Part shown: positions 15,541 to 63,633 of the stretch, piece after piece
Layout: each line of letters begins with the position of its first letter
Position numbering within the stretch: position 1 is the first letter of the stretch
Origin: Acholeplasmatales bacterium
GTDB lineage: Bacteria > Bacillota_I > Bacilli_A > Acholeplasmatales > Anaeroplasmataceae
Direction: 5' to 3'
NCBI GenBank assembly: GCA_016288855.1
Contig: JAEELJ010000028.1
Coordinates: 379 to 64,378, forward strand
DNA: 64,000 bases
Notes under the pieces: model-generated
Database searches by the model: none
What the model was told of the DNA's origin: nothing
What the model saw: only the letters and a program-made list of their open reading frames with translations
Made by a program: the position numbers and the translations under genes

Positions 15541-15572
15541 AAAACAAAAGAAAGTGACTCGATTGAGTCACT
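15541..15572 (-). terminator. intrinsic terminator ending surface-protein operon 2
   Basis: AGTGACTC-GATT-GAGTCACT hairpin overlapping the stop codon, followed on the minus strand by UUCUUUUGUUUU. Confidence 0.6.
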
Positions 15573-16350
15573 AATCTTGTTGCTCAGGCATATCACATGA
15601 TAATGAGATTCTATACTGAGGCAATATAAAATTTGTATAAGTTTGTGTAGCTTCTGGTGTTTCTCTTATTTGTAGCCATAAGTCTAGTCTACCTACAGAT
15701 AAACTACCAGTTGTTGCTTCTATAACCATATCTTCTTCTAATGGATTTAAATTAAAATCTTGATATGTATATACTCCATTATTTTCCTGACAGAAATTTG
15801 TCCATGATGTAAATGTTACATTGTTTGAAGTATCAACAATACCTATTCTTGCATCAAAATCCTTTAATGAATTTGGAACTGGGGTATAATCACTATCAGC
15901 ATCAAATCCAAATGTTAATGTATTATCTAAGCCAACATAATTTGTTACTTCAAATTTAAATGTATAAACCTTACTTGGACAAACATTCTCTAATGTAACT
16001 GTATTTAGTAGGTTTGCAGATGAGTCGTATGATAAAGCGTAACGTTGATCTACATAATTAAATGAATAATCTTCACTATGATACTTTTGCTGATAAGCTA
16101 CATAAGCTTCAGCCTCAGGATTATAATATTTATCTACATTAGCTAGGCTTTGCTTATCAGGTACACCATTAAAGTTAGTATCATTAGCTTTATATAATGT
16201 TACCATTGAGTCAATTTGTAAGATATCAAAGCTCATATCCTTAACTCTATCTTGGTTTATATACCATGCAGTAACTAAGCTTATCAAAGTAGTAAGGGTA
16301 ATAGCTAATGCTGAAAATTCCAATACTATTTTAATTATTCTCTTTTTCAT
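15571..16350 (-). CDS. TasA/camelysin-sized exported protein with a SipW-type-like leader (operon 2, gene 4)
   Basis: 259 aa. Leader MKKRIIKIVLEFSALAITLTTLISLVTA|WYINQDRV. Tightly packed behind 16382..17173. The fold assignment is inference only. Confidence 0.6.
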   Translation of the reverse strand: MKKRIIKIVLEFSALAITLTTLISLVTAWYINQDRVKDMSFDILQIDSMVTLYKANDTNFNGVPDKQSLANVDKYYNPEAEAYVAYQQKYHSEDYSFNYVDQRYALSYDSSANLLNTVTLENVCPSKVYTFKFEVTNYVGLDNTLTFGFDADSDYTPVPNSLKDFDARIGIVDTSNNVTFTSWTNFCQENNGVYTYQDFNLNPLEEDMVIEATTGSLSVGRLDLWLQIRETPEATQTYTNFILPQYRISLSCDMPEQQD

Positions 16351-16381
16351 ATTAAATTCCCCTTTCTACAATAAATTTTAA

Positions 16382-17173
16382 TTAGAACATTAAGTATACA
16401 CTACCAATTCTAAATCTCTTTCTAGATAATAGGTTACCATATGAAACAGTTGATTGACCTATTAATTGGTAATATTGAGTGAAGTCTTCACTTATTCTAA
16501 AAGTGTAATATAAAGCTTCGTAGCTATTTAGCCAAGTATGATGTAATAAATCAACTTCTACAGTTTCTGGATCATTTTGGCTAATATTATAAGAACTAAA
16601 CCAAGTAAAATCAGATGCAGGAGTGAAATTAGCTGGAGTTTCTCCTTCTCCATCTTTTAAAGACATACTCTTATATTTAAATGCACCTGTTACATAGTGA
16701 GTATAATCTACTCCATTGTAATCAACCTTAAATGAGTCAGCAATGATATTTTTTAATTTTAAATTATAATTATATCCATCACATTGACTATCCATATAAT
16801 ATCCTAGTGTAATATCTACATATTCACCTGGTAATAATTCTGTAATTGAGAAGTAAGTATCTTCTTCAAATGTAGTAATAGTTGTAATAGTACCTGTAGA
16901 TGCATCATAAATAACTTGCTTTGTAAGTAATAATGAACCATCACTTTGCTTAGTATAAGTATTTTCTTCTGTACTTCCACTTAAGCCATATCTTTTTGCT
17001 GTAACTGTATCCTTAAAATGTATACAATCCTCAGATGCAGTCATACCAGTTATTCCTGTTGCTTTTACAGTGTCATTTGCTGTATACCATGCAAAGATTA
17101 CGAAAACTAGTAAGAATAAGCATATTAACATAGATATTATACTTGATATTAAATTAAAACGTGTATTCTTCAT
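16382..17173 (-). CDS. TasA/camelysin-sized exported protein with a SipW-type-like leader (operon 2, gene 3)
   Basis: 263 aa. Leader ...LLVFVIFA|WYTANDTVKATGITG, nearly identical in motif to 42007..42735. Internal ITELLPGEYVDITLGYY resembles the TasA-family xxPGDxxxxxF strand. Confidence 0.6.
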   Translation of the reverse strand: MKNTRFNLISSIISMLICLFLLVFVIFAWYTANDTVKATGITGMTASEDCIHFKDTVTAKRYGLSGSTEENTYTKQSDGSLLLTKQVIYDASTGTITTITTFEEDTYFSITELLPGEYVDITLGYYMDSQCDGYNYNLKLKNIIADSFKVDYNGVDYTHYVTGAFKYKSMSLKDGEGETPANFTPASDFTWFSSYNISQNDPETVEVDLLHHTWLNSYEALYYTFRISEDFTQYYQLIGQSTVSYGNLLSRKRFRIGSVYLMF

Positions 17174-17196
17174 AGTTTTCTCCTTTCTTCACATTT

Positions 17197-20100
17197 TTAG
17201 TATCTATCGACATAGAATTTAACAGTTAATGTATATCCACTAAATGTATAAGTACAATAGAAATATGTTGCAGTATATTCTGTATATGTATTACCATACT
17301 TATCAGTTGTTTGGTAACCCCAAGTTAAAGTACCAGGTGTATTAATTAAACCAAAGTCTGAATAAGTCATATTTCTATAATTATAGTAAAGCTGTGTAAT
17401 AGAAACCTTCTTTGATAGCTTATTTTGATATACTATAGATTTTAATTTAGCATAATCATCATAGTTATCAGAATCCTCAAACATTACAGGAACTCCACTT
17501 GAAATCTTATTATATACAGTAATACCATCTTTAATTAAGTCATTATAAGTTTGGAAATTTGTAATACCATAAGAACCAACAATTGGATTATTTATAGTTT
17601 CTAAGTTTCCATATAAATATACTTCTTCTAGATTATCTAAATCTACTAAATCACTAAATGTTTGAATACTATTATTAGATATATCTAATGTCTTAATAGA
17701 ATCTATATCACAAATTGATGAAATATCTGTAATTCCACAGCCACTTAATTTTAAGTAAGTAACTGATGTTAACTGTGAAATACTTGTTAGTGTTGCACTT
17801 GATAATGTAACACCACTTAGGTTAACCTTAGTAATACTTGTTAAGTTACCGATTCCATAGAAATCTGAAACGTTAGATAATGTACTATCTGATGTAACAT
17901 CTAATGCAATATCAATTGATAACCATTTCTTTGGAATAAATGAAGATGATGTTACACTTGATGCAGCTAGTGTATCTCCATTTGGATTAAAATTATTATA
18001 AATCCAACTAAAGAAATATCTATCCTTAACTGCATTTGTTTGTGATGACGAAGTATTATAGAATAATCCACCACAAATATTAAATGTAGAACTTGTTAAT
18101 TCTGTTACATAAGTATGTCCATCTACTGAATAAGAATATAGATTCCAGTTAGCTGCAGGGCTAAACTTGTAGTTATATAATAACAACATTGGGATATCTA
18201 CTGTTGATGCGTTTTGAGCATTAATTCTAAATATGTATTTAGCATCTCCATATTCAGCAATTGTTTTAACAGTTAATCCATTATTAGTTAAATATGTGTC
18301 TAATAATGTAGTTAAAGAAGTTGTTGTATTACTAAATGTTACTCTTTCAGCACCATTGTAATATAAAATTACATTTAAGCATGAAGGAACACCTAATGCA
18401 TAAGTATAATAATTAAATTCTTCAGAGTTTGTATTTTTATGAGTTTCAAATACATTTGCAAAATCATAACAAATATAAGGGGCTCCTGTACCAAATGAGA
18501 ATGGCATTTCGAATTCATATTCTAAGTCTTCTTGTACCATTGGGTCATATCTATTATAGTATGGTAAGAATCCAGCTACAGTGTCTCCACTTTCTGCTAA
18601 ATAATCAACATACATATCAACATCAACTGATACTGCATCATTACCACTACCAAACGTGAATGTTGCAGTTAAATATGATGTTTTTGCAGGAGGTACTGAA
18701 CTATCTGATGCAGTTAATACATAATCTGAATATGTATAATAATCAGTAGCTTTAGAACCTTCTATAGGACCTTCCTTCAATGAATATGTTAAATTAGTAA
18801 TATTATATCTTGTAACATAGCTATAAGTAGTTGCATCTAAGTTACTACCTAGATCACTTAGCTTATATAGAGTCTTTGAACTACCGGTTGATGAATCATA
18901 GATAATTGCCCCACCATATAATTTGTTTAAAATTAATCTCGCAATTGTTTCATAATCTGAAACATATTGTGAATACATATTTAATACTAAATTAGTTGAA
19001 TTATTAATATTTACAACTAAATGGAAGCAATTATCATTTGGTTGTAGAATATATACATTACTACTTGGATGAGATGTAGTATTAACAGCTGTATTATTTA
19101 TATCTGTTAATTGATATGTAAATGAAATATTATCATCAAATGCGTATAATGGCAATTCTACACTATTAACAAATTCATAATAATTTGAAATAGAAATTTC
19201 TTCATTAACATTTAATGTAACATCTCTATAATATTCTTCTAGATAATCTAGAATTAATTGCTTAGCAACATTATTCTTAACTGTAGAATTACTTAAATTA
19301 ACAACATGTAATTTAAATTGACATGAATATGATGTATCCCAAGATTCATGTGATACTGTTGCAGTTAATGTTACATCTTCTGTAGTAGTAGGTAATGTAA
19401 CCTTACCATAATTCGAAATAATATTTTCATTACTTGATGTATAAGTAATATTTACATCAGTTGATAAATAATGCATTGGTAAATCTAAATCCTTATATAC
19501 AAATGAGCATAACTCATCTGTATTAGAATTAAAGATACAATTTGTTTTTGTTGTAATAAACTTTGATTGATTAATTACATATGATGAAACACTAACTTCT
19601 TCATAATTAGCTTTATTAACCTTTCTAGTTAAGTCAGAGCCAATTGAATCACTAACATAATATAATGCATTATATGCAGTATATTTAGGATCAATATTTA
19701 ATACTGTAACTGTGTTAGCTTCTATTGTTACTGTAGTGTTATTGTAATATGTAACATTAGATGTAACAAAACTTGCATTAGCTAAATCTACAACAATCTT
19801 ACCTAAGCTATTTGATCCTGTATTAATTATTCCACCATATATGCTGAAGCAACCAGCATATCCATGTCTAAAAGTTAATGTATTATCATTAAGATTTAAT
19901 GTTTTACCATTTAAATCTAAATGTACATCTGATGTTACCTCGATACTAGATTCTAATTCAATATTACTAGTCAATCTTAAAATCTTTCTTGCTTGTGCAT
20001 CAGAAACAATATTACTATCGTTATAAGCACTAGCTTTTGAATTCATAAATAAATCTTCAAAAGAGGCTATTTCAATGACATTTTCATCACTTATATCTGT

Positions 20101-20223
20101 TTGTGCTGTAGCAGTCTTATTAGATGTAGCATTTAAATATGCAAAAACAGATACACATGCTAAACATATTAACATGAATGATAAAGATATAAATATTATT
20201 ATTTTACTTCTTTTACTATTCAT
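17197..20223 (-). CDS. large surface protein with beta-helix-like N-region, Ig-like module and C-terminal leucine-rich repeats (operon 2, gene 2)
   Basis: 1008 aa. Leader ...CLACVSVFA|YLNATSNK. LRR block LTSITKVNLSGVTLSSATLTSISQLTSVTYLKLSGCGITDISSICDIDSIKTLDISNNSIQTFSDLVDLDNLEEVYLYGN. Module NITYTSSNENIISNYGKVTLPTTTEDVTLTATV. No LPXTG. Confidence 0.75.
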   Translation of the reverse strand: MNSKRSKIIIFISLSFMLICLACVSVFAYLNATSNKTATAQTDISDENVIEIASFEDLFMNSKASAYNDSNIVSDAQARKILRLTSNIELESSIEVTSDVHLDLNGKTLNLNDNTLTFRHGYAGCFSIYGGIINTGSNSLGKIVVDLANASFVTSNVTYYNNTTVTIEANTVTVLNIDPKYTAYNALYYVSDSIGSDLTRKVNKANYEEVSVSSYVINQSKFITTKTNCIFNSNTDELCSFVYKDLDLPMHYLSTDVNITYTSSNENIISNYGKVTLPTTTEDVTLTATVSHESWDTSYSCQFKLHVVNLSNSTVKNNVAKQLILDYLEEYYRDVTLNVNEEISISNYYEFVNSVELPLYAFDDNISFTYQLTDINNTAVNTTSHPSSNVYILQPNDNCFHLVVNINNSTNLVLNMYSQYVSDYETIARLILNKLYGGAIIYDSSTGSSKTLYKLSDLGSNLDATTYSYVTRYNITNLTYSLKEGPIEGSKATDYYTYSDYVLTASDSSVPPAKTSYLTATFTFGSGNDAVSVDVDMYVDYLAESGDTVAGFLPYYNRYDPMVQEDLEYEFEMPFSFGTGAPYICYDFANVFETHKNTNSEEFNYYTYALGVPSCLNVILYYNGAERVTFSNTTTSLTTLLDTYLTNNGLTVKTIAEYGDAKYIFRINAQNASTVDIPMLLLYNYKFSPAANWNLYSYSVDGHTYVTELTSSTFNICGGLFYNTSSSQTNAVKDRYFFSWIYNNFNPNGDTLAASSVTSSSFIPKKWLSIDIALDVTSDSTLSNVSDFYGIGNLTSITKVNLSGVTLSSATLTSISQLTSVTYLKLSGCGITDISSICDIDSIKTLDISNNSIQTFSDLVDLDNLEEVYLYGNLETINNPIVGSYGITNFQTYNDLIKDGITVYNKISSGVPVMFEDSDNYDDYAKLKSIVYQNKLSKKVSITQLYYNYRNMTYSDFGLINTPGTLTWGYQTTDKYGNTYTEYTATYFYCTYTFSGYTLTVKFYVDRY

Positions 20224-20249
20224 ATAAATAGCCTCCTTTCATTTTAATA

Positions 20250-23200
20250 TTATTCGTATAATGAACCTACGAACTTCATCTTATAAATCTTCTTGTACTC
20301 TAATACTGTACCATCAGTTTGAACAGTACGTATTAATGCGGTAATTTGTACAGTAAATGTACCAGAATAACCTAAATAATCACCGGTTCTTTGAACTAAC
20401 TTATCGTTTGTTAAACTTGTATAAGTACTTTCACCATTAATTGTAATTCCCATATCGTTATATTTAACTAAGTTAACGATATTAGTCTTTTCATCTAATG
20501 TTACTTTATACCAGCCTGCATTAAAGAAACCGAAACCAGCTTGTGCGGTTGAACGTACTATATCTCCTACACTTAATTGACCAGTACCTAAAGCAATTAA
20601 GATATTATCTGATGTATCTTCAGTATATGCTTTTACTTCAACCCATTCAAATGCAGTATTTTTAGCATTCGGCATTATTCTATAAATGTAGCCAGGTCTT
20701 ACATAAATACCACTTGATATATATCTTGCTGTGCCTGAATATGCATAATATCTACCATAATATGAGCCATATAAATAATCTTTAAAATGGCTGTTTGCTT
20801 CAGTTAATATAGAATCCATGTTTGTTCCACCACTATCGGCCACAGATTCTGCATAATGTTCCCATTCAAGAACACCATCATTAACAGTCAAATTATAAGC
20901 ATGGTTTTTAGAATAAATTGTTTGAATATATAAAGGTGACCAAGAATATATATTATCTGTCACAGTTTCTCCTGTATACCTAAATATATATTCATATCCA
21001 CTAGATAAGCCATAATAGAATTCAACTTGTTTATTTAATAAATCAGTATTTGCTGAAGTTAAATCAGTCGTATATGTTGCATATGGTATTACAACTGTTG
21101 AAGATAATTCCCAATTAGATGTTAAATGTTCATATAAATAAGCCATATCAGAATAGCCTTCATCATTTATTGTATATTCAACATCATTATAAACATATGT
21201 GTATTCAGAATTAGTTCCTTCAGTATCAGCTGGAAATCTACTTCTTATATCACTTATCAAATAAGTTTGCGTTGAGTTAAGTGTATTTATAGTTATAGAT
21301 TTAATATTCAGTGGGTTAGAAAGATATACTTTATCACTACTTGATGTTTCATTATACCAAATATTTATTACGTAAATAATAGAATTAGATGAAGTATATT
21401 TTCTTTCAATACTATTATCAACATAATCATAACTAGAAAATACAGCAATGATCGTATTAGTCTTTAGAGTCACATTATTAATTATGGTATTTTCACCTGT
21501 ATAGAAATAATATTTGTAACTAGTCGTTCTTGTTTCTGAGACTATTGATTTAAGATCAGTATATTCTAAAATAGCACCTTCGATTTTATCTACTTCATAT
21601 CCTACCTTATAAGCTTCAATAGTATCAGTTGAATTATCCTTATAAGTTACTACAAAATTAGGATTAATTGTATAGTTAATAGTAGTACTTACGCCAGTAG
21701 ATACAGTCCATCTTCCTTTAGCATCTTTATTGCTATGATATTTCACATAAAAATCATCAGTGCATCGCAATCTAAATGTAGTGTTTTCATATAGTTGTAT
21801 ATAATAATAACCACTTGTATACTGCACAAGAGTATAAGAAAGTGCACTATTAATATTAGTTGTTACAGAAGGAATAATATCGTTTGCAATAGTATCTGAT
21901 TTGTTACCGATTAAATATAACTGATTGTTATAAACAAAACATAAATAATATCTTTCATTAAGATAAACATCCTCAGTTATAGTAGTATTAGCTTTATATG
22001 ATTTATTCAAAATATTTTTAACATTCTCTTCTGATAAAAAATACACTCTATTATATTGACCAGCCGTTCCTGTTGAAGTATCCTGAGTCAATCCTGGAAT
22101 ACCACTAAAACTTCTATATGATAAATATCTTTTTTTCGAACTATTATAATAATAATATTGTGCAGAAATTGTAATAGTTACACTAGTACTATTTTCAGTA
22201 TACCAAGTTACAGTTTCAAGATTAGTAGTTGTTCCGGCTTCCACTTCTTCATAAGAAGTCTCAGTTGTAGTTTTTACTTCGAAATCAGATACATCAACAT
22301 TTTCAAAACCTACTGATGGAAGACTTGTTGTAGTTGTTTTACTTGATAAGCCTAAATCATTAAAGACAATAGTTGAACCAGAGGCCCCAATTTTATATAT
22401 ATGTCCCTCTATAAAACTATATGTACCATTTTTATAACTATAGGTAAATGATTCTGAACAATAATAGAAAGGAGATACCATTTGATTCATTTCACTTATT
22501 GATGTAATTTCAGGATACTTACCAGGATTTGTTATTCTACCATATAATTCATTACCTTCATCAATTCTCCAATTGATTGTAGTAGTTGAACCATCTTCAT
22601 TATATATAACATTAGTCATATACATATATTTAGATATGAACTTATTGAAATCAGATAGATCTGCTAAATCAGATGCTCTACTTGAATCATTACTATATGT
22701 ATTTACACCATTTGCATTCTTATAATAAATAGTACATGTAGATGTTGCTATATTATCGATTGCAAATTCTTGGTATTCATATTCAACACCAATATTAGTA
22801 ATATTAACATAAGTATAATTACCTCTATTAACATTTACTAATTCATTTACACTATGAATACCTAAATTGTTAGATAAATCAAGATATGTTAATTTATCAT
22901 AATTCTTTATGTTAGTTAAATCAAAATTTGTATTAGTATGTGCAACATTTTGCATTACTAATCTAGAAATTTCTTTATTAACTAATGATGTTCTTGCAAC
23001 TAATGTTGATAAACCATTTTCACTTAAGAATGCAGCTAAGTTATCATTTCCATATATTTCTAAAGTACTTAAATTAGTAAAATATGATAATGCTGACTTT
23101 AAGCTATCAACATTTGTTACATATGGAATACCACTATTTAAAGATGTCTTAAATGTTGTAGTATTTTCACCATACTTATTTAATTCATATTTTTTACTTC

Positions 23201-26200
23201 CATAATTATAGTTATTATAAAATTCCTTAATTAATAAAGATACACCATCAGCTGTGAAATATGTAGGAATTTCTAAACATGCATCAAACGCATTTAATAA
23301 AGCTTTACCAGCAGTATTAAAGTTTGATAATGAGAATCCATAATAATATATTCCACCATCATCTTGTAATACTTTATTAATATTTGAATAATTACTTGTT
23401 AATGAAGTATTTAGACCGGTTGTGCTGCCACTACTTGCAGATATACCGTTAAGCCAGAACACTCTTAATATAGTAAGTTCATCTTCTGTAATATATGATG
23501 TTCTATCTGATGCAAGTAATGAGTAGTTTTTGGCTGATCCATTACCATCTCCACCTGATGAACCACCAGCAAATGTATATCTACACCACCATTTGCCATT
23601 ATTCAACTGAACTGAATAATTAATGTTATAAGATGTTCCATTGTAAGTATAAGATGATAGATTTGAAGTACTTTCAACCCATCTATATCTAGTATTGTAA
23701 ATTTCCTGACATGGGGCAGCATCATCTTTATTAACTGTAGTTGTTGAAACCGCATAACGTTGAATAACTTCCATATACTTACCAAATATAGTAGCGAAGT
23801 TTGTTGCAGTACCACCATTATAATATGTACTTAGAGATTTACTTACAGAAACAATTACTTGATTTAACAATTCTGGATTTGTATAGATATATCCAGGAGC
23901 TTCATTAAATGATTCTAAATATACATTATTCCAGTCAGAATCAGATGCACCAGTATAATATTTATATACTTGCTTAATTACAGCTAATTCATCTTCATTT
24001 AAATAATCTTCTGCATTAGACTTAGTAGATGTTAAGCTTCCTAATGCTTGAGTATTTGATACAACAGTTGATGCAGCAACTCTAGTATCACTTGTTGCCC
24101 ATTCAATTAATCTAGCTAAATCATAGGCAGCTGTATCAGATGTTTGCTGTTCATTTGTACTTCTTGTCATAAACTTTAATATAGATACACCTTGTGCATA
24201 TTGAGATGCTTGAGTATAACCACATACTTCTAAGTAATATCCATCATTTGTATCATATTCAGTTAAATAATTAACATCACCAACTATATCTCTTAATAAT
24301 ACATAGTTAATATTAGAATCAGATAATATAGTATCTGATGTAGAATAGCCTGTATTACCAGTCTTTTCATTAGATGGTAGTTGACTAAATACTTGATATT
24401 TAGCTGATTCATATAATGAAATAGTACCAAAATTATCAACATGTAATGCAGCAGGTACAACTACATAGAAAGTTCTTGATTTAGAAGTTTCTGCAATAGT
24501 CCCCTTCTTATAATATACTGTTGCTTTAAAGGCAACTGTAGTTTCATATTCATTAAAGTATTCAGGATTGATTGTAAAATCATATTTATCGTTTACTGAA
24601 TCATATGTTATTGAATCAATAATTGTATTAGCACCTGAGAATACAATTGTATATTCAGGATCTTCTTTATATGTTGCTGATAATGAGAAATCACCTTTTT
24701 CTTCTCCCATACCATCACTTATTCTTGTTGCAATGATATTACCTAAAACACTTATTTCTTGTAATTCATTTGATACTTGAATAAATGCTTTTTCTAGTAA
24801 CTGAGTATTTGAACCAACTGAAATACTAATATTAATATGTGTTGAATATGTTTCATCATTACCGAAATCACCAGTAATAGTAATTCTTGCAAAGCTGTTT
24901 AATGTTTCTGTATTCAAATATAATGTATTTCCTGATTGAGTAATATAATCATATGCAGCAATTTGTTCTTCTGTCATTGAATATGTAATAGATTCAATTC
25001 CAATATCTTTAAATGCAGACCAGTTAAATAATTGAGTATTCACTGGAGAATCATATGATGTTCTATAATCATATTCATTAAATGTACCATTGCTATTTTG
25101 ACTTACAATTGGTAAATGATATAATGCATCATCTGCATCAGATGCATCATTATATACATTTGCAATAACAATTGGTGAAATTTCTTGTACTAACTTATAG
25201 AAATTAATTTCATTGTTATGTACAGAAACCTTAAAATCAAATGTTCTAGTTACAACTGTATCATTAATCTTAATTTCAGCTAGTAATGATACTTCTGCAT
25301 TTTCTAATCTTGTTGCAGCAATCTTACCTTGTGAAGAAATAATATCTTCATCACTTGACTTCCAAGTGATTGTTGCATTTTGATCTTTAATATATGTAGG
25401 TAAGAATAAATCAGTTGATACAATATCACCATCATTAGGTAGGTGAGCTAATGTAGCATCGATTAATTCTGATTTAGAACCTAAAACCTTAAATTCAATA
25501 GTTTCATCTTCTACTACTATTGATGCAACCTTTGAATAATATTCATTAGATGTATTAGTAATAATAATATTAGGAGATGTATATTGACAATTAGAGCCTA
25601 CAGTTATATTTAATCCATAGAATGAATATGGGCCTAAAATATTTGTAGTTGAGCCACAAGATAAGGCTTCACCTATTACATCTTTAATATGATTAAAAAC
25701 TAAAGATTTTGCTCCATCTTCATCATAATAGCTTCCTAATGTAATAGTTCCATTAATACTACTATTACCTAAAATTTCTAATAATGCATCAGGTGATGTA
25801 GTATTATCATCATTAATAGTTAAAGAACCATTTAATGTACCATTTAGGTAAATAGTTGTTGGATTTTTAATTGTATAAGAGTTTGTTAATGTAACATTAT
25901 TACAAATAACAATTGTTGGATTAACACTAAATAAGCCTGAATTAACGTCATCAATTGCACGACTAAATGTTTCTTCATTAGTTACGTAGATATAATCTAA
26001 GTAATCAGCATTTTGAGTAATTGTTGTTATAGAGATTGTAACAGTCTTACCATCAAATAAAGAATTTTCAGCTGCTTGATGTAACTCAAACTTTAATGTA
26101 TCAGTTCCACTTTCTGCTAGTGGAATGAAAGAATATTTATTTTCTATATCTAAAGGTACAGTAGTTAATTCTGCTAATGTACCAATGTATTCATCATTAA

Positions 26201-26522
26201 AATAAACTAAAATTGCTTTCTTTAGATTATCATCACCTGATGTTGCTTCTACATTATATATATTATGTAATACTACACCAGATTGATTTGTAGTTGAAAT
26301 TGTGATAGTTTTTGCGTCACCAGCTGCTTCATATGTAAAGCTATAGCTTCCAGTTGAAGATGAGTACTGTGTAGTTGCAGTAACTTCAGTTGTAGAGATA
26401 TCAATATTACCTCTTGATGATGTTGAAGTAATTAATGCATATACACCAACTGATATTGCTGTTGCAATGATCATTGCTGATAATATAATAAGCATTACAA
26501 GTCTTCTACTTATCTTCTTCAT
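20250..26522 (-). CDS. giant surface protein (2090 aa) with Ig-like and LRR modules (operon 2, gene 1)
   Basis: I place the start at the internal ATG at 26522 (MKKISRRLVMLIILS...), which has GGAGG 9 nt upstream. The tracked 26666 start would run through the riboswitch terminator. Contains ATITWKSSDEDIISSQGKIAATRLENAEVSLLAEI and an LRR-like segment YDKLTYLDLSNNLGIHSVNELV. No LPXTG. Confidence 0.8.
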   Translation of the reverse strand: MKKISRRLVMLIILSAMIIATAISVGVYALITSTSSRGNIDISTTEVTATTQYSSSTGSYSFTYEAAGDAKTITISTTNQSGVVLHNIYNVEATSGDDNLKKAILVYFNDEYIGTLAELTTVPLDIENKYSFIPLAESGTDTLKFELHQAAENSLFDGKTVTISITTITQNADYLDYIYVTNEETFSRAIDDVNSGLFSVNPTIVICNNVTLTNSYTIKNPTTIYLNGTLNGSLTINDDNTTSPDALLEILGNSSINGTITLGSYYDEDGAKSLVFNHIKDVIGEALSCGSTTNILGPYSFYGLNITVGSNCQYTSPNIIITNTSNEYYSKVASIVVEDETIEFKVLGSKSELIDATLAHLPNDGDIVSTDLFLPTYIKDQNATITWKSSDEDIISSQGKIAATRLENAEVSLLAEIKINDTVVTRTFDFKVSVHNNEINFYKLVQEISPIVIANVYNDASDADDALYHLPIVSQNSNGTFNEYDYRTSYDSPVNTQLFNWSAFKDIGIESITYSMTEEQIAAYDYITQSGNTLYLNTETLNSFARITITGDFGNDETYSTHINISISVGSNTQLLEKAFIQVSNELQEISVLGNIIATRISDGMGEEKGDFSLSATYKEDPEYTIVFSGANTIIDSITYDSVNDKYDFTINPEYFNEYETTVAFKATVYYKKGTIAETSKSRTFYVVVPAALHVDNFGTISLYESAKYQVFSQLPSNEKTGNTGYSTSDTILSDSNINYVLLRDIVGDVNYLTEYDTNDGYYLEVCGYTQASQYAQGVSILKFMTRSTNEQQTSDTAAYDLARLIEWATSDTRVAASTVVSNTQALGSLTSTKSNAEDYLNEDELAVIKQVYKYYTGASDSDWNNVYLESFNEAPGYIYTNPELLNQVIVSVSKSLSTYYNGGTATNFATIFGKYMEVIQRYAVSTTTVNKDDAAPCQEIYNTRYRWVESTSNLSSYTYNGTSYNINYSVQLNNGKWWCRYTFAGGSSGGDGNGSAKNYSLLASDRTSYITEDELTILRVFWLNGISASSGSTTGLNTSLTSNYSNINKVLQDDGGIYYYGFSLSNFNTAGKALLNAFDACLEIPTYFTADGVSLLIKEFYNNYNYGSKKYELNKYGENTTTFKTSLNSGIPYVTNVDSLKSALSYFTNLSTLEIYGNDNLAAFLSENGLSTLVARTSLVNKEISRLVMQNVAHTNTNFDLTNIKNYDKLTYLDLSNNLGIHSVNELVNVNRGNYTYVNITNIGVEYEYQEFAIDNIATSTCTIYYKNANGVNTYSNDSSRASDLADLSDFNKFISKYMYMTNVIYNEDGSTTTINWRIDEGNELYGRITNPGKYPEITSISEMNQMVSPFYYCSESFTYSYKNGTYSFIEGHIYKIGASGSTIVFNDLGLSSKTTTTSLPSVGFENVDVSDFEVKTTTETSYEEVEAGTTTNLETVTWYTENSTSVTITISAQYYYYNSSKKRYLSYRSFSGIPGLTQDTSTGTAGQYNRVYFLSEENVKNILNKSYKANTTITEDVYLNERYYLCFVYNNQLYLIGNKSDTIANDIIPSVTTNINSALSYTLVQYTSGYYYIQLYENTTFRLRCTDDFYVKYHSNKDAKGRWTVSTGVSTTINYTINPNFVVTYKDNSTDTIEAYKVGYEVDKIEGAILEYTDLKSIVSETRTTSYKYYFYTGENTIINNVTLKTNTIIAVFSSYDYVDNSIERKYTSSNSIIYVINIWYNETSSSDKVYLSNPLNIKSITINTLNSTQTYLISDIRSRFPADTEGTNSEYTYVYNDVEYTINDEGYSDMAYLYEHLTSNWELSSTVVIPYATYTTDLTSANTDLLNKQVEFYYGLSSGYEYIFRYTGETVTDNIYSWSPLYIQTIYSKNHAYNLTVNDGVLEWEHYAESVADSGGTNMDSILTEANSHFKDYLYGSYYGRYYAYSGTARYISSGIYVRPGYIYRIMPNAKNTAFEWVEVKAYTEDTSDNILIALGTGQLSVGDIVRSTAQAGFGFFNAGWYKVTLDEKTNIVNLVKYNDMGITINGESTYTSLTNDKLVQRTGDYLGYSGTFTVQITALIRTVQTDGTVLEYKKIYKMKFVGSLYE

Positions 26523-26589
26523 ATGAAAGCACCTCCTTCTGATATTAATTTCAAAAATCGGATTAGTTAAAGCAACCTTATATTTCCAT

Positions 26590-26695
26590 AAAAAAAGCCA
26601 GTTGTCCTTTTGCAACTGGCTGTCTTTTTTGGAAATCCACCTAAAGACCCTATAGCTTTGCGTCATAAGATTGCTCTTACTTTGCCCATAAATAA
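26590..26695 (-). promoter_or_regulatory. c-di-GMP-I (GEMM-I) riboswitch with intrinsic terminator, leader of operon 2
   Basis: Minus-strand RNA: GGGCAAAG[GUAAGA-GCAA-UCUUAU]GACGCAAAGCUAUAGGGUCUUUAGGUGGAUUUCCAAAAAAGACAGCC. This is followed by AGCCAGUUG-N8-CAACUGGCU plus U7 (26590-26621). The GCAAA / GNRA-capped hairpin / GACGCAAAGC core is the GEMM-I signature. Confidence 0.8.
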
Positions 26696-26913
26696 AAGTA
26701 GTTTAATTGCAAAACAACTAATCCTAGAACGAAAAACTAAATTAACTTTAACCTTTACTAAGTTCAGTATAAACGAAAAACATTTAAAAGTCTAGTATTT
26801 TTTAATTAATTTTTAACTTTTTATGCATGTAAGTGTTAAAATTATCTATTTTATTCAAATTGTAAATATCTTTCTGATTTGAAGTATAATTCTTATTTTA
26901 TATTATTTTCAAA

Positions 26914-28128: not shown

Positions 28129-31100
28129 TTATTCTCCTGATGTTTCTTCATCATTTGGTGTAACACCAACATATTCAGCTTGTCTTGTATAAATATCAGA
28201 TGTTGTAACTGCCCATGCAGTTGCATTATCACCAGTTCCTTCTTTTACTATGAACTCTAAGGCAATAGTCTTAGTGATGATAGATGTGAATGGTAAGAAT
28301 GCTCCTTCTTCTATAGATGATCCAATCTTATCATATGATTTATCTAATTGGTTCTCCATATCAGTAGTTACAGTTACTATATATCCATCAGGTAAATCTA
28401 TATAGAAATAGAAATAACCCTTTGGTAATGTTTGAAGTTTAATCTTTAATTTATATAAAGCTAAGCCATATGTATGTGAATTAGTATCAGTGTCAGTGAT
28501 GATATTATCTTCATCATCTTTTTGTACAACTAAATAACCTGATATTTGTCTTGTTGCAGTCTTTACTGTATCAGAATATATATTTTCAGAAATTGTCATA
28601 TATAATTCCTGGTTAGAAATTACTTCTGCAAAATCTACTGGTGCATATAATTCTACTTCGAAGTAAATTGTGTTTGTAGCATCAACAATTGAGATATGGT
28701 AATATCTTTGATTACCTAAATCATCTTCTCCATGTAATGCTGCTTCACTAAATACTACATAAGATACATACCAGAAATGGTTATTAACAGGACTACCTAC
28801 ATAATCCATATATAATGCCTGGTTAGAAATTGAACCAGTTTCACTAGCTACATGATAACCATTAATTGTTATAGATGTATAATTATTATTTTCAGCTAAG
28901 TTTTGTGCAGTATAAGCTGTAATACCTGTACCAAATTGTCCAACCTTAGTTGTTGCACCATTTGTACCATCGAATGCTGTTGTATATACATTAGTCCAGT
29001 TACCTGTAGAAGATACTTCAACCATATATACTATAGTTGTTGTACCATTTGTAAATGGAACATATAAATACATTGTATCATGATTAGATAATACTTCTGC
29101 ATCACTTTCAGTTTGAACATCAGCACCATAAGCAGTTAACTTAGCTAATGTTGTATACTGATAAATTTGTGCATGCTCTTCTATACCGAATGTAGGCGCA
29201 TAATATGATAAATCAGAATCAGAAACTGTACCTAATGCAAAGTAATCAGTAATGCTTGTCGACTTTGCAGCTGTAGAATACTTAATAGTCTTATTCTTAA
29301 TTTCAATATCACGGCTTGTTAATGAGAAAATGTCACTATAAGTAGTTTCATGTCCATCAACAGCCTCGCTACTTGCTTCAGCAAGAATAGATGTACTTGT
29401 TGCAGTATTAGTCTTCATAACTGATGCTGTATTACCAATTACAATAGACTGATCTAAGAATGTTAAACGATTTAATAACGCGTCAGTTGAATAACCCTTA
29501 ATTATGAATAATGTTGGGAATAGATATTGTCTTACGTATTCAGTATCGCCACTCCATGTACCAGTACTCTTATAAATGTAATCAAATTTATAAACACCTG
29601 GTTCATTAGATTCAGTAACTGAAACAGTTAAACCTGCGTAAGTTAATGAAACAGCTGCACCATTATTTAATGTATCATCAGTTGTTTCATATGTTACATC
29701 ACCTAATGTATAGAAATTACTTAAGATATATTTAATACGATATTGAGGTTCTTCACCACGATTAAACTTAACAGCAACGAATGTATCTACTGATGAATAA
29801 GTTAATGATGAGTATTGACCTAAATATGAATCACTATCATAAGTGAAATCTTCAGTATATAAATCAGATTCTTGTAATGCAACACCTTCTTCAAATACAT
29901 TCGCAATTGTACTATCGAAGTATTCCATTTCATCTAAGTAATGATAATAAGTCTCAGATGAACCTGATTCTGATGTTACAACAAACTTAACAGAGTATCT
30001 AATTCTTCCATCTCCGTTAGCAATATTTGCATATGTTGCAGTAATTACAACAGATGCGTTAGGAGAGATTTCAAAATCAGCTAAATAGAAATTCTCTGAT
30101 TTATAATTAGTTAATTCAGTATAATCATAAGCTCTACCGAACTTGATTGAACTTGTCTTACCTGATACATAAGCACCACTTGTTGTTAAATCATTATCTT
30201 CAAATGTTAGCTTAGTAATCTTAGCTTCTGTATTTAAAGCTTTTTCAACTTCAACTGTTCTTGTTTGTGAGAATACAGATATTGTTAATTCCTCAGTACC
30301 ACCAGGTAAGTTTGCATTAATATCAATAACTAATGTAGCACTACCATTTGTAACAATACCATTATTTCTTGTTGAAGCATTGTAAGTCCAACCTTTACCT
30401 TCTTTATATGATGTAGAATCATTTGTAATAGTGAAGAAAGACTTAAAGTCGAAATTATCTGGGATGTTTGGACAAGTAATAGTTAATGTTACTGTACCGC
30501 CATTATAAGTTAATGAGCTTGTATCACTTGTAACGGTGAAACTTACTGGTATACCAACTAAGATAATATCATATGCAGTATAAACAGATGTATCTTCAGC
30601 TGTAACTGTAATTGCATCCTTAACTTGATAATTACCCTTTGAATTAGTAAATCCACCAGTTAAATTAATTGTTGATGTATTAGATTTATTAGTTACATAT
30701 GTTGCAGTTTCAGCATAATCAATATTTTTAATTGAAATATTGTTATTTGCCATAATAGTAGCAAGATCTGTTTCTAATACATAATATGTAATTGTACCAT
30801 TATCAACATCAATAGTTGATGATGAAGCATAAATTGTACCTGCAGTTGAATCAGTTAAATCTAATTCAAATATTGTAGTTGAAATAGATAGCTTTAACTG
30901 CTTCATTTCAATTCTAAATGCGTAATTTACTGAACTAGAATCTGATGTATCATAGCTTTGAGTAGTATCTGTTGCAACAGATGAATTACCAGTGTTATCT
31001 CTCCAAGATGTAGAGATTGAACCTGTAGTTGTAACATCACTAGAGTTAATTGAAGCATCTAATAATTTAATAATTGATGCATTATTAGAATCTGTTGCAG

Positions 31101-34100
31101 TTGTATCATATGCTGCATCCATTGAAGTTAATGTTAGGTTATCAGGAATGAATGTACCATTCTTAATACCATGACTTGAAGCTAAGGCAAAAATACCATA
31201 ACCTTCAAGGTTAGCTGATACACCTAAATGCTCTAAGAATTGTGTAAACTTAGTTGCATTAATTGTTGTATCGCCAGCTATAAATTGATAGAAACCTGCA
31301 GTTGTATCACCAGTTGTAGTTGATTTAGCAGCTGATGATGCATATGTAGATAATACAGTATATAGGATAGATGATGTTAATTGGTTATTGTCTGAACATT
31401 CAATTAAATCGTCTCCTAAGTATGCTGCAATAATTAAATCTTCTGACTCAGAATAATCATTATCATCACATATTTCAATTATCTTCTTAATCATATTAGC
31501 AATAACTTCATCATCAGTAATACTTAATAATAAATTATCGTAATACTTAGTTGGTAGGTTAGTTATTAATCTACCTAATACTGAGGTTGTAGATGAGTAA
31601 TCAGCTTTTGCTAATGCTTTGATAATTTCTTTTAATTGTGTTGAAGTAAATTCTTCTATTGTTGAATCATCAAAGAAATAATAATTATCATTTGAATCAA
31701 TCATTGTAGGATAAACAACTAATAATGTTTCTAAAATCTTATTAGCATTATCCAAATCAAGATTAAATGAAGATAAATTTGTATAATTTGTACCCTTGAA
31801 TATTAGTGTACCACTAGAAGCATCTGTTGTATCACTATCATAATAAATCGACGTAGCACCCGTATTATAAGTAATTGCACCATTTGCATTTACTTGTAAT
31901 ATTTCAGATATAACAGCATCAGATGCAGTTATAGTATAAGTACCACCGCTTAAATAGAATGCACGATAATTTCCATTAGTATTCTTCTTTACACTACTAA
32001 TTGATGTAGAAACACCATCAACATCATAAGTTGTTGTACCACCTACAGTTACAGTGTATCCATCATCTGCCTTAACTAATATAATAGTTGGAGTTGAAAC
32101 TGTAATTGATGTAGTTGTAATCTTTGGTGAATATGTTGTAGCATCAATTAAATTTGAAGCTAAATACGAAGCATATTCACTTAAGTTAGAATAATAAGAA
32201 TTATAATTATCTTCAATTGGCTTTAAGTTAGGGTATTTAACCTTTGTATTGTCAGTACCTGAAGCTCCAATATCAATATATGTGATATATGGCATATATC
32301 CATCACCTGAAGAAATTGCATATTCATAACCAGCTTCAATATCTTCATCTGTAATATCAATTTCATAATAATAAGATTTACCAGGTTGTAACTGCATATT
32401 ACATTCAAGAGCTTGTGAATAATTAGTGAAATATGTACTGTAGTCACCTGGAGTACTTCTCGTTAATTTATATAATCTAAATCCCATCTTATCTGTATTT
32501 TCGATATTAGATAATACAAATTTAAATGTACCTGATTTGATAGGTGCTACCCAAATACATCTATTTGGAACTAGTAAAGTACCGCTCCATGTACCTACAC
32601 ATGCATTTTCAACCGCAACTAATCCACCTTCATTATTAGCATCGAACTGCGAATCACCAGTTAAACGGATTAAATAATCACCATTTCTATAAGTTGTGTC
32701 ACCATCTGTTTGAGTATCAGATAAATAACTTACTATATCTTCTGATGGTGCGGCATGATCGGCAGTTGGTAATGTATATGGAGTACCATCTCCATTAGGA
32801 TAATAGAATGTATCAAAGTTAGCCTTATTGGCCTTATTGTAAACCTTAACATCTGAACCAATATAATAACCAATATTATTACCAGTTGATGAGGCTTCAT
32901 ATGTATAACAAGCAGTAACTTGCTTAGTACCAGCACTTAAAGTCATATTAATTTTACTAGCTGATGGAGAAAGCAATGTATCATCAGCAATCTTAAATGG
33001 ATATGCATAGCCCTTTGCAATAGTTGCTCCATCTGTAGAACCTAAAGCTTCGTATAAAGCTTTAATATCTGTATATGAGCCTACTCCATCTTCTTGACTT
33101 GCATCAGCATCTCCACCTATTGTTGTAATGAAATCATCCCAATCTAGGTCAGATAATGCCGCAAATGCAGTTAAATCTGTAGATGTTACTCCTGCAAATT
33201 TTTCTGCTATCTCTTCATCCGTTATGTCAGGATCATGCTCTCGCAGATATGTTGCATACTTATATATAAAGTACGTTATATCGGTACTTGTTACAGTATT
33301 CGTTCCATCATCGTCATCATATTTATCGTTCGCGAGCGTCAACAATAAAATCTTCTTAAACAATTCTACGTCCGTCGCACCAAGCATACTTAGATTTTCT
33401 AAATCAGTATATTCTACATCTTCAATTAGGCTATCTAAGTATTCTTTTAATGTAGTATTGTAATAAGCACTATAATAGTAATAATATTCATTACTTAATG
33501 CAATATTATCCTGCTTTGTATAAACATTAATTACAGCATTTGATGCAAATGTTGTACCTCTTAATGCTGATGATAAGAATCTTAATGAAGCACCTTGAGA
33601 TGATGTAAATCCTGTTGTAGATGCATAAACACCTAATGCTTCTAATACAGCTTTTTGACCATCTGTTGTAGATAATACTTTTGTCATAATAGATGAAATA
33701 ATACCTATTTCATCACTATCCTGTGGCTTAGTTGATGCTGATAAACCTTTTGTTCTAACACCATCTAAGGCAACTAAATCATCCATTTGATAATAAGTAT
33801 ATTGTGTAGTTTGTACACCACCATAACCATCTTGTTTTGCAGAATCATCAGTTTTTGAAATTAAGTAACATCCAACAACAGTATTACCATTTTTCCAAAC
33901 TGATAAAACATACCAAATACCGCTAATTATAGATGAAGTTGCATAACCTCTAAAATAATAATCTTTTAATGGGTGTGTGTATGAACCATTACTAGATAAT
34001 CCAGCTCTACATTGATTATTTGTCGTAACAAGACCAAGTTCTGTACCACCTGTCGTTACTCTTTGATAAGTAGATGAACTAACTCTTAAATTATTATTAG

Positions 34101-37100
34101 AAGTTAATAAATCGTTATTAGTATTAACAGTATATGAAGGATCAAAATTATAATAATCTGTTACATATGTACCAGTTTTATAATTCTTTAATAAGTATCT
34201 TGTACCATCTTGTTGAGCATTATTAATAATATAATCAGAAACCCATTGATATCTCGAGTCGCCTTTACTTGATTGTGTTGTACCAACGTCATTCCATAAG
34301 AATGCATAAGATTCTTTATTTGTTGCAGTTGTGTTAGATTTTGCAATTACATCATCAGTAAATGTCTTATTTGCAGAAATAAATACAGGAACATAAGCTC
34401 TTGTTGTGTTTGATATATTAGATGCACTATATATTTCTTTTCCCAAATAATCATCATAATTAGTTAGTAATGATGCAAACACCTTACCATTAGCCATATA
34501 TGGACCATAATAATATGTATTTGAATCATTTACACTATCTGGTGTATATAAGAATCTATTGTTTACTACTTCTGTATTAGAATATGTTATATTATCAGTA
34601 CCAGCACGGTATATACCATTTGGATTATTTTTACCATCAGTTGTACCTGATGGTGCATCAATTGACTGATATGTATTATTCCATTCAGTTGCTTTTGCAA
34701 TTAAAGATATATAAGAAATTGATGAAGTTGGGTCTTCATGACTACTAAATAGTCCACTACTATTCTTTAAATAGTTTTGGAAATTTGTATTATTCTTAAT
34801 GATATTCCATAATTCAGTATAATCATGAGTATATGATACTAATTCACCATTAATATATTGAGAGTCTGATGTTGAAGTATATTCATCAACAAGATTAGAT
34901 GAACTATATTCATTTTCAATTGATGCATCAATATCATATTTCTTAAATGCATTATTAATTGCATTTAAATAATAGCTATTGCTGCTGCTATTATATGCAA
35001 ATAAGTTAGCATATATAGTTAACGCAACATCAGTATGATTTGATAAATAGTTAATATACTTTAATGTGTTTTCAGCATCAGTTGTATCACTTAATAATTC
35101 TTGCGCAATTAATGCTAATGTTTCAGATGAATAATCAGCTAATAAAGTTTGGATTAATTCCATCTTCTTAACTAGATAATAATCACCAGTTTCATCATTA
35201 AATAATGGATCTAAGATGTCATTATTTGTATCATCAATTAAAGCTTCTAAATATGTAGTTAATACTTCTTCTAATTCTTCTGATGATGCAGATGCTAATA
35301 CTGTTCTAATCTTAGTTTGTACAGCAGCATAATCAGATGTATCACCAGATACAACCTTAGCTAATAATTCATCATATAATAATTTTTGTAATAATGTATA
35401 AGCATCAGTTTGTTCTGTCTCATAATAAGACATTATTGTATCAATGATAGTTGATCTAATTGATGATGTAATATCGCTAATACATTCATCATCAAATAAA
35501 ATATATTCTAAGATTTCTTTTAAATCTGATGAAGTATATTCAGTTGTATTTCCATCATCAGCACTTAAAATTTCAGTTAAGAAATTAACTAATAATGTAT
35601 CATCAATGCTTTCATACCATGTTGAAGATGTAAATGAAGCTTCAACAAGTGTTGTTGACTTAGTAAGTCCTGAATATCCATCACTTACGAAAACAGACAT
35701 TGTTGCAACATCTCTTGCAAGTTGTTCTGCAGCATTAACATATGCTATATTCTTCCAACCAATCTTTTCTAGTAATAATTCATTTACCTTATCGAATCTT
35801 ACGAATTGGAAGAAGTCAGCAATATATGCATCTGTTACATATGTATCATAATCAACAACTGTTAAATCACCATTGATTGCTCTTCTGAATATAAACTTTT
35901 CACTAAATACACCAATATTACCAGCTTGTGTATCTGTAATAGTTGATAAAGGAGCATATTTTACAGATGAACCACCAAATGTATCAAGTGATCCATTTAC
36001 TGTAATAAATGTTGATGCATCAATACCATCTGCAGGTGTATTAAGTTGGTTTAAAGCTTGACAAATGAATGCACCATTAAAGAAGTTAATAACATATCTA
36101 ATTGAGATATTAGAACTATCTCTACTTGCAAAATTTATAAATCCAAACATTGAGCCTAGATAATAATAATTTTGTAATGCTGCATCATATGAACCTGTTG
36201 ATAAATATGTTAAATTAACAACTTCATTATAGTTAACATGATATAGTGTAGCACCAGTATAAGAATATTTTACTAATACATAAACTGTACCATAATTAAT
36301 AGTATTTGCTAAATAGAAAGTTGTATCACTAAAGTCACCTAAATTAAATGAGCCAATAAGTGAACCAACTACTTCTGAGCCATATATATTACCATAATTT
36401 AATACGTTAACAATGTTACAAATACCATATGCCATAATACCACCTGTTTGGCAATGACATGCAGCAACGCTTGATCTTGTAACATTTGCAGAACCATTAA
36501 ATCCAATTAATGTACCATAGTTAATTGTGAATGCAATTACATTATTAATGTTTCCTGCTGCACCATAATTTGTTGCAACAATACCACCTACATTAACTTC
36601 AACAGCATATGAATTTGATGTATTGATAACCTGTATTGTACCATTGTTAGCAGAGTCTCTAATTTGAGCATAATTACCAGTCATTTTGCAAGCAATACCT
36701 GCTGCAAAATATTCATCATTTGCAGCTTTTGCAAATATATCTAATTGAATATCACCTAAGTTAAATGCGTTAGATATAATACCTGAATTTGAATATGCAA
36801 TACCTGATGCATAAACACTTCCAACTAAATTAGTAGTTGTAGTTTGTGAAACAGCTTGTGGAGCATTATTAGTATTTGTATAGTAAAGATATTGATCTTT
36901 ATTATAATCACTAGATGTTACAGTAATTTTACCATTATTAATAACATCATTTAATGAACCAACAAGTGAGCTATCAAATGTTGCATTTAAAGGATTTTGT
37001 TCAGTTGCATTTATTACTGCTAAATTATTACGACAAATACCTGAAACATAAATATTGATATTCATATCACTTGATGAAGAATCAGTTAATGTAATATCTC

Positions 37101-39921: not shown

Positions 39922-39938
39922 AATGGTCATCTCCAGTC

Positions 39939-41201
39939 TTAAATACTACCCAATGTGCTAGGATCGACTCCCCATAATTCTAACGCACGGTTTGCTTGCA
40001 CAAGCTCAACTGTGAATGATACTTCTACATCAACATATTCAGTATATACTGATGTTTTTGAATTTGAGTAGAAATAAGCTTGATTTACATTAAATGAATA
40101 ACTTTGTGATGCAAAGTCACCATTTGAATCCCTTGTAGGTAAAATCATTGTTTTAAGATATGCTGTATTCTCATTAGTATTGTAATACCAACCAGTATCA
40201 GAAATTGCAAATGGCGAATTACCAGCAATTTGATCCTTAATAGTATATGTTTCCTTTTGTGCAGAAGCATACTTTCTTGTTAAAATCCACGCATCCTTGA
40301 TATGGATTCTAACATATACTGCAATCTCATTAGTAAATGTAAACGCAAAGCCTAGTTGATTTAAGTAAATGTTACTATCATCTTGCTTCTTTTCTGTTGC
40401 GCTACATGTTATTGTTTCACTTGAATCAGTTGTACCAGCACTCAAAGTTTTATCAATTACAACAAAACCTAAGCCATCTGTATCAACAACAACAAAGCAA
40501 TCATCGTTATCTGTTGATGCTTCATCAATTCCATCTTCACTAAATGAAGTAATTGTTACAGTAATAAGTTCAGCTGAATTCTTGCTAAAAGTAACAATCT
40601 TAGAATTAGTAGATGAAATTTCATATGTAATTTCATCACCAGCTGGATTTGCAATTGTACCAATTGATATAACACCTGAGTGTGTTGATGTTGCAACATA
40701 ATATGTGCTTGCTGGAATAGTGCTTCCTACTGAAACAGTAGATGTTGCTGTATATCCAGAATTTGAATCTTTAGTATAATAAGATGTACTACTATCAAAT
40801 GATGTATCTGATGTTAAATAATAACCACCATTCTTATCTTCATAATAAGTATTAGATGGAATTGTACCACCTACTGTAACAATAGCCTTAGAATAAGTAC
40901 CTGCTACATAATATGTTTTACTTGCTTGGAAAACTGTATCTGTTGCAAGTGAATAAGTTGTAGTTGTATTTAAAATTACATCTTCTACATCAATTAATGT
41001 ATCAATTCTCATCTTTGAATTAGATGAGCTACTATAGTCAATAAAGTGCTTACTATCAACCTTAACTTGACCTACTTCAATATCATTTGTAACCTTTTTT
41101 GTAAATGTATAAGCTGCAAATACTATTGATATCATTGAGATAAGAACCATCAATGATGTAGTTAATATTAAAATTTTAGAAATTCTTTTATTACTCTTCA
41201 T
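39939..41201 (-). CDS. exported protein (420 aa) with a SipW-type-like leader and short TDTxF..KTYY repeats (operon 1, gene 3)
   Basis: Start at 41201 (MKSNKRISKILILTTSLMVLISMISIVFA|AYTFTKKV) with GAGGG upstream; the tracked TTG start at 41219 is less likely. The C-terminal VSFTVELVQANRA resembles the TasA-family ..ATQ.N.. end motif. Confidence 0.65.
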   Translation of the reverse strand: MKSNKRISKILILTTSLMVLISMISIVFAAYTFTKKVTNDIEVGQVKVDSKHFIDYSSSSNSKMRIDTLIDVEDVILNTTTTYSLATDTVFQASKTYYVAGTYSKAIVTVGGTIPSNTYYEDKNGGYYLTSDTSFDSSTSYYTKDSNSGYTATSTVSVGSTIPASTYYVATSTHSGVISIGTIANPAGDEITYEISSTNSKIVTFSKNSAELITVTITSFSEDGIDEASTDNDDCFVVVDTDGLGFVVIDKTLSAGTTDSSETITCSATEKKQDDSNIYLNQLGFAFTFTNEIAVYVRIHIKDAWILTRKYASAQKETYTIKDQIAGNSPFAISDTGWYYNTNENTAYLKTMILPTRDSNGDFASQSYSFNVNQAYFYSNSKTSVYTEYVDVEVSFTVELVQANRALELWGVDPSTLGSI

Positions 41202-41228
41202 GGTTCCCTCACAAAACAAAATTTAGTC

Positions 41229-41996: not shown

Positions 41997-42006
41997 AATT
42001 GCCCTC

Positions 42007-63629: not shown

Positions 63630-63633
63630 ATTT

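Follow-up and report, generated by a model that had tools for sequence, protein, structure and literature searches.

The pbuE (ydhL) adenine riboswitch of Bacillus subtilis works as an ON switch: its terminator takes the 5′ arm from the 3′ part of the aptamer, control is kinetic, and a separate anti-terminator is lacking. Among class-I c-di-GMP riboswitches, Bc2 of Bacillus thuringiensis BMB171, located ahead of cap, the gene of a collagen adhesion protein, carries a terminator directly after the aptamer and responds to c-di-GMP with read-through, being ON in vitro as well as in vivo (PMC4933901), and it served as ON control in PMC11218506. Of the riboswitches tested in Clostridioides difficile, those of class I act as OFF switches and those of class II as ON switches, the latter (pilA1, CD2831, CD3246) turning on pilus and adhesin genes with c-di-GMP (PMC6200980). 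Taken together, the OFF behavior of class I in C. difficile and the ON behavior of Bc2 indicate that polarity depends on the platform, not on the class.

Here we analysed a 64-kb stretch of Acholeplasmatales DNA, which as a whole we call the window, and a riboswitch within it, rs1, the RNA of which is the reverse complement of window positions 26590-26696 (Table 1). In common with Bc2, rs1 has a class-I aptamer, a short platform, a terminator at the aptamer 3′ end, a predicted default of termination and a gene for a large, adhesin-like surface protein downstream, and on this likeness we read its platform as Bc2-type; the likeness is one of described architecture, between different organism groups with unrelated downstream proteins, and the function that is tested for Bc2 is predicted for rs1. 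With Cd1 / Cdi-1-x of C. difficile (flgB, zmpI and others), rs1 shares the Rfam family, the low-GC Firmicute setting and transcription termination as output; these are OFF (PMC6200980), whereas the opposite polarity is predicted for rs1, because the terminator arm is part of its aptamer. The aptamer fold of the class-II C. difficile riboswitches is unrelated to that of rs1, which matches class I only among the Rfam models, and pbuE differs in aptamer class and ligand. A literature search combining Acholeplasma, c-di-GMP and riboswitch found no paper, indicating only that the lineage is little studied.

Table 1. Positions of the riboswitch, platform and gene features (window coordinates)
Feature	Position	Strand	Basis or remark
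c-di-GMP-I (GEMM-I) aptamer rs1	26608..26696	-	RF01051, 61.3 bits, cut-off 35, E 1.5e-9, model 1-87/87
Aptamer hairpin P1, GUAAGA-GCAA-UCUUAU, GNRA (GYRA-type) tetraloop	26665..26680	-	Rfam alignment and pair list
Aptamer hairpin P2	26614..26657	-	Rfam alignment and pair list; 3′ strand common to terminator
G equivalent to Vc2 G20	26686	-	Rfam alignment position; 27-nt spacing to A26659
Intrinsic terminator hairpin of rs1, AGCCAGUUG-CAAAAGGA-CAACUGGCU	26596..26621	-	pattern scan; 9 pairs, 5 G-C, 8-nt loop
U-tract after terminator stem	26590..26595	-	sequence; U7 if last stem base 26596 is counted
Candidate sigma-70-type promoter, TAGACT-17-TATACT	26766..26794	-	consensus-level match only; weak
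GGAGG ribosome-binding site (26536-26532) and true ATG (26522-26520)	26520..26536	-	sequence; orthologues align from this Met
Gene 1, 2090 aa, Thr/Ser/Asn-rich, N-terminal membrane helix, one aBig_2 domain	20250..26522	-	
Gene 2, 1008 aa, aBig_2 and leucine-rich repeats	17197..20223	-	
Gene 3, 263 aa, N-terminal helix, 'AWY..ND' motif, beta-sandwich	16382..17173	-	AF2 model, pLDDT 84
Gene 4, 259-aa paralogue of gene 3	15571..16350	-	
Operon-closing terminator, 8 pairs	15553..15572	-	2 sites (one hairpin read on both strands) vs 0.0 in shuffles
Abi_2 (abortive-infection-like) gene	26914-27942	-	inserted between the two riboswitch-controlled modules
rs2, c-di-GMP-I	42804..42878	-	RF01051, 56.5 bits; upstream of second operon 42735..28129
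rs2 overlap terminator, AGCCAGUU, 12-nt loop, GACUGGUU, U-run	42785..42817	-	-7.7 kcal/mol
AWY-type protein genes	15571-17173, 41229-42735	-	behind c-di-GMP-I overlap riboswitches

The earlier note, made from the bare sequence, had proposed a c-di-GMP-I riboswitch at this position, and the covariance model agrees: Rfam cmscan at gathering threshold over the 64-kb window returned two matches, both to RF01051 and both on the minus strand, of which rs1 is covered at full length and scores far above the cut-off. Of the 21 consensus pairs for which rs1 supplies both bases, 19 are canonical; the other two sit in distal P2, which can instead pair as UGG/CCA. The UGGA(UU)UCCA hairpin drawn there earlier had to be abandoned, as its 2-nt loop cannot close; UGG/CCA with an AUUU loop is the likely form. 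P1, with its GNRA tetraloop, and P2 are joined by the conserved junction sequences GGCAAA / GACGCAAAG / ACAGCC..GC by which the family is recognised, including a two-pair junction helix (G26685-C26660 and C26684-G26661), and the 3′ strand of P2 reads GAC..CC.AGUU (26624-26614). A possible closing helix, also called P1, short and with weak A-U pairing, would join CUUUU (26698-26694) to AAAAG (26611-26607) and thereby use the terminator loop. For the equivalents of G20, A47 and C92 we use what we take to be the Vc2 numbering. The spacing from G26686 to A26659, the A47 equivalent, is as in Vc2 and Bc1, and C26612 is probably the C92 equivalent, an assignment made by position alone (directly 3′ of P2); it is also the first base of the terminator loop. 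Judged by its full-length match, rs1 is in our reading a genuine class-I c-di-GMP riboswitch aptamer.

The terminator platform that had been suggested likewise emerged from the pattern scan, as a hairpin running from 26621 to 26596 with 5′ arm A26621-G26613, loop C26612-A26605 and 3′ arm C26604-U26596. Between 26400 and 27000 the scan scored 2 terminator-like sites, which are this single hairpin read on both strands, against 0.1 +/- 0.4 in shuffled sequence, and the hairpin alone folds with -13.3 kcal/mol in the model. It lies on the same strand as the downstream reading frame, between the aptamer and ATG 26522, at 67 nt upstream of this start codon. Considering that it also scores on the plus strand, service to a plus-strand gene was weighed and rejected: all large ORFs from 474 to 42786 are listed on the minus strand, and the plus-strand ORFs in this interval are short and all inside minus-strand genes.

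That aptamer and terminator share a strand is correct, however the extent of the overlap is larger than the AGCC nucleotides first noticed, as the entire 9-nt 5′ arm lies inside the aptamer and 14 nt of the hairpin fall within the Rfam match. In the pair list, P2 uses 26614-26619, the 3′ strand of basal P2, together with 26622-26624, while the terminator 5′ arm uses 26613-26621; hence the P2 3′ strand AGCCAGUU, followed by the conserved G and C, doubles as the terminator arm. The bound-aptamer fold and the terminator are mutually exclusive, strand 26613-26621 being needed by both.

To follow what this exclusivity does by default, the free and the aptamer-constrained folds of the full leader were compared, a comparison that had been proposed beforehand. 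The terminator wins, at -29.6 against -16.5 kcal/mol for the aptamer-enforced state (secondary-structure energies only). P2 in isolation reaches only -7.8 kcal/mol, and the pair probability of its basal part is 0.03-0.23 before the 3′ arm is made, with three different 5′ ends modelled. The completed terminator on the other hand pairs with a probability of 0.98-0.99 in the full leader without ligand and, because it dominates the modelled fold, termination is the predicted ligand-free outcome. A helix UUUAUGG/CUAUAGG that also appears in the minimum-free-energy terminator state was discarded as folding noise, rs2 being without it. No separate anti-terminator was found in the rs1 leader: AGCCAGUUG is the sole complement of the 3′ arm and occurs once, and no other complement of either terminator arm is present. 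Since only AGCCAGUUG can pair with the 3′ arm, an OFF design has no anti-terminator to draw on, and since the sequestered strand is the terminator's own 5′ arm, folding of the aptamer can only oppose the hairpin.

These features, together with the conserved overlap described below and the Bc2 precedent, make ON the best reading of the polarity, as the earlier note had also held, and we infer that rs1 is likely a transcriptional ON switch in the leader of an operon with four surface-protein genes (26522..15571). In the ligand-free state, the terminator 3′ arm would displace P2, which is only marginally stable, and RNA polymerase would stop at the U-tract 26595-26590, about 70 nt ahead of the start codon. 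With c-di-GMP bound, P2, the junction and the short A-U P1 would be locked, leaving the shared strand no longer available, so that the hairpin could not form and transcription would run on into the operon. The model, in which tertiary and ligand energy are ignored, prefers the terminator by about 13 kcal/mol; such a gap means that the switch would have to be kinetic, leaning on precisely these tertiary and ligand contributions. Counting against the ON reading besides this gap, only ~3 nt separate the inferred aptamer 3′ end from the terminator 3′ arm, which would leave very little time for ligand capture; the weak A-U pairing of the closing P1 and the OFF polarity of the class-I riboswitches tested in C. 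difficile also speak against it.

The start of gene 1 required correction. The listed ORF 20250..26666 begins at ATG 26666, which lies inside the 3′ strand of P1, and would read through aptamer and terminator; congruent with the earlier suspicion that this start is spurious, orthologous proteins align from ATG 26522, with GGAGG 9 nt upstream. Gene 1 homologues come after the same riboswitch type in other genomes. For the proteins of genes 3 and 4, Pfam and NCBIfam gave no known family at E <= 1.

The second aptamer of the window, rs2, precedes a module encoding proteins of 242, 255, 426 and 3933 aa, none with a family match in Pfam or NCBIfam at E <= 1; a strong terminator (28121-28092) closes this module. 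The rs2 aptamer has a truncated P2, and a promoter-like site of its own is present at 42961-42933. Its overlap terminator, missed by the simple scan since the loop exceeds 8 nt, has 8 pairs including G-U and is weaker than that of rs1; rs2 may be leakier than rs1. At orthologous loci the two modules are seen adjacent, without Abi_2 and in opposite order.

The two leaders had been thought to derive from a joint duplication of aptamer and platform, on the basis of identical strings in both. The strings GACGCAAAGCUAUAGGGUCUU and GACAGCCAGUUGC are indeed identical, however both lie in the aptamer and neither in the expression platform, and they represent the conserved aptamer core, since the core pattern occurs in at least 119 genomes. 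The remainder of the leaders has diverged: the P1 stems differ with two compensated pairs and carry GCAA versus GUGA loops, a 14-nt indel separates the P2 hairpins, the terminator loop and 3′ arm differ and the flanks are unrelated. The widespread core and the divergent remainder leave the joint duplication unsupported.

The exact core pattern, GACGCAAAGCTATAGGGTCT-N(2-32)-GACAGCCAGTTGC, was recovered from at least 119 representative (species) genomes ranging from Lachnospiraceae to Anaeroplasma, spanning Firmicutes and Mollicutes among the matches listed. In 123 same-core aptamers, the P1 stem occurs in 94 distinct versions and its pairing is 93.6% canonical, as opposed to 52.9% when the partners are shuffled. 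A terminator 5′ arm starting at least 6 nt inside the aptamer was present in 22 of the 118 such aptamers outside the window, where 1.2 +/- 1.1 would be expected from dinucleotide-shuffled downstream sequence. As far as sequence comparison can tell, the overlap platform is a real, recurrent class.

The pattern is stronger still among the operons homologous to those of the window. Here the terminator 5′ arm is drawn from the aptamer 3′ strand in 17 of 19 non-window riboswitch leaders (named for this count: L001, L039, L086, L096, L100, L120 twice, L123, L126, L128, L131-L136, L138 and L139), with L087 and, in the L134 tandem, the upstream aptamer as exceptions. The pairing registers number at least three: AGCCAGUUG in the window, L096, L100, L128, L138, L139 and L039; (AAA)GACAGCC or GAUAGCC in L001, L086, L123, L126, L131 and L135; AGUUGUCAU in L133 and L134; and, in L120, UGCAUAU, made up of C92 and the 3′ strand of P1. 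For rs2 and the two L120 leaders the automated picks gave odd long hairpins, and simpler hairpins were used. One compensatory change was found: with GAUAGCC in place of GACAGCC in the aptamer goes GGCUAUC in place of GGCUGUC in the 3′ arm. The overlap being kept in varied registers is, on comparative grounds, the strongest computational support that aptamer and terminator have been selected as a coupled pair.

Homologues of the window proteins are found behind such riboswitches in the Anaeroplasma MAGs L001, L086 and L100 (about 40% identity), in an uncultured "Bacillales" MAG (L096, 76% identity) and in an Acholeplasmatales MAG (L039). The family of gene 3 (C263) has 30 unnamed homologues, the contigs of which carry the same four-gene module, and a protein-pattern scan of metagenomes added ten further loci. 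Every homologous leader with enough upstream DNA has an RF01051 match, and a metagenome scan for close rs1 copies, with the rs1-specific extended P2 as query, gave 0 matches. Two arrangements deserve separate mention: in the metagenomic orthologue L134, two tandem c-di-GMP-I aptamers (1253-1416) precede the giant-protein gene, and L135 has two divergently oriented riboswitches, at 648-727 (-) and 1176-1254 (+).

The surroundings of rs1 bear on a reading in which the hairpin serves chiefly as a plain terminator, constitutive for the most part, be it the missing one of Abi_2 or an attenuator, with the aptamer a relic or acting by another route, namely RNA stability or translation. For the Abi_2 gene, a promoter-like site was seen at 28017-27990 and, ahead of the aptamer, no terminator of its own, so that the rs1 terminator may also end Abi_2 transcripts; indeed, there is no other terminator between the Abi_2 stop (26914) and the aptamer, the hairpin is thermodynamically dominant, and no promoter is proven in this interval, the promoter-like sites near rs1 (6 versus 4.1 +/- 2.0 in shuffles) not exceeding chance. 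The aptamer, scoring far above the cut-off and with all key positions apparently intact, is however hardly what a relic would look like, and orthologous riboswitches with an overlapping terminator have clear TTGACA/TATAAT promoters of their own, roughly 15-45 nt upstream of the aptamer, with no Abi gene upstream. Moreover, many lineages retain the arrangement in changing registers, and this speaks for selection of the coupling. A translational route finds no support either, the ribosome-binding site lying 55 nt beyond the U-tract, unsequestered in the folds and with no anti-RBS pairing. We hence consider a constitutive terminator unlikely, and a ligand-controlled one the preferred reading.

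Further genes in the neighborhood, all on the minus strand, include three of defence or mobile type, namely a Schlafen/AlbA_2 plus HATPase_c_4 protein (14010-15449), a HipA toxin gene divided between an N-terminal and a C-terminal ORF (49705-50968) and a weak Cas12f/TnpB-like fragment (63402-63722), as well as a 1570-aa ORF without Pfam match (52454-57166) that adjoins glycosyltransferase and mechanosensitive-channel genes.

The same architecture could also serve another cyclic dinucleotide, 3′,3′-cGAMP, alone or beside c-di-GMP. At position 20 of Vc2, G marks the c-di-GMP type and A20 the cGAMP or bispecific GEMM-Ib RNAs (PMC6140456), and about a quarter of the same-core aptamers carry A at the equivalent position, including relatives of the riboswitch of the second operon (L096, L120). 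Both copies of the window have G there (G26686 in rs1; AGGCAAA in rs2), c-di-GMP-I is the best-matching Rfam family within its clan, and a GGDEF-EAL gene neighbours one orthologous operon. Such a ligand is thus very improbable for rs1, and c-di-GMP, as predicted from the class and from G26686, is the best reading. Lastly, an OFF switch in which c-di-GMP promotes termination has the uniformly OFF class-I riboswitches tested in C. difficile in its favor (PMC6200980), however it needs an anti-terminator that the folded aptamer destroys, where the rs1 aptamer instead sequesters the terminator's own 5′ arm, and the same overlap is kept in homologous leaders and matches the tested ON switch Bc2, so that we give this polarity scarcely any credence.

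Regarding the position-20 variants themselves, A, rarely C, occupies the Vc2-G20-equivalent position in about 29 of 123 same-core aptamers, including L096 (aptamer 3′ C at 584, -) and L120 (11600-11677), the operons of which are homologous to the second module. Such aptamers may be variants from outside Geobacter that are bispecific or respond to cGAMP. Immediately downstream of the orthologous operon, L128 (12392-14608) and L129 (9710-11926) encode a GGDEF-EAL protein that also has a solute-binding domain, meaning that c-di-GMP turnover enzymes exist in this lineage.

We then turned to the downstream proteins. The small proteins of the operons carry a membrane helix at the N terminus and, after it, the conserved motif [FAG][AG]W[YF]..N..V.A.G ("AWY"), and such proteins stand behind overlap riboswitches in many lineages (loci L009, L016, L021, L028, L039 and L067, and further L074, L090, L096, L100 and L104). 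No family of Pfam, NCBIfam or PHROGs matches them. The AF2 model of the gene 3 protein shows a helix, a linker and a beta-sandwich; Foldseek against the PDB returned no significant hit for it (best E 0.03, TM 0.16), and when PDB sequences were searched with a profile, the sole match was to the N-terminal helix of a pilin, at E 2.8. An identity of the TasA/SipW/camelysin type found no support, with no SipW-cognate signal-peptide/Peptidase_M73 match at E <= 1 and no TasA-like fold, and a putative signal peptidase in L089 was unconfirmed by Pfam.

With its class, its ligand and the ON design with overlapping terminator known already, rs1 is in itself ordinary. As a functional handle, it leads to large unannotated surface proteins of poorly studied Anaeroplasma-like bacteria: with the start of gene 1 moved from 26666 to 26522, it defines an 11-kb operon that is predicted to be c-di-GMP-induced, so that its expression would depend on the second messenger by which attachment is usually governed. 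That high c-di-GMP should induce surface or adhesin-like proteins would fit the usual paradigm. The comparative set adds that, on a fixed aptamer strand, the pairing register of a platform can move with the logic unchanged. More tentatively, and with more doubt than conviction on our part, the two riboswitches might mark an undescribed c-di-GMP-induced cell-surface apparatus of Anaeroplasma-like gut and rumen bacteria, that is of wall-less, Acholeplasmatales-type hosts, with a module of one giant protein of 2000-4000 aa and two or three small proteins, in which the AWY motif following the helix could signal the processing or assembly of a fibre or adhesin of a new kind.
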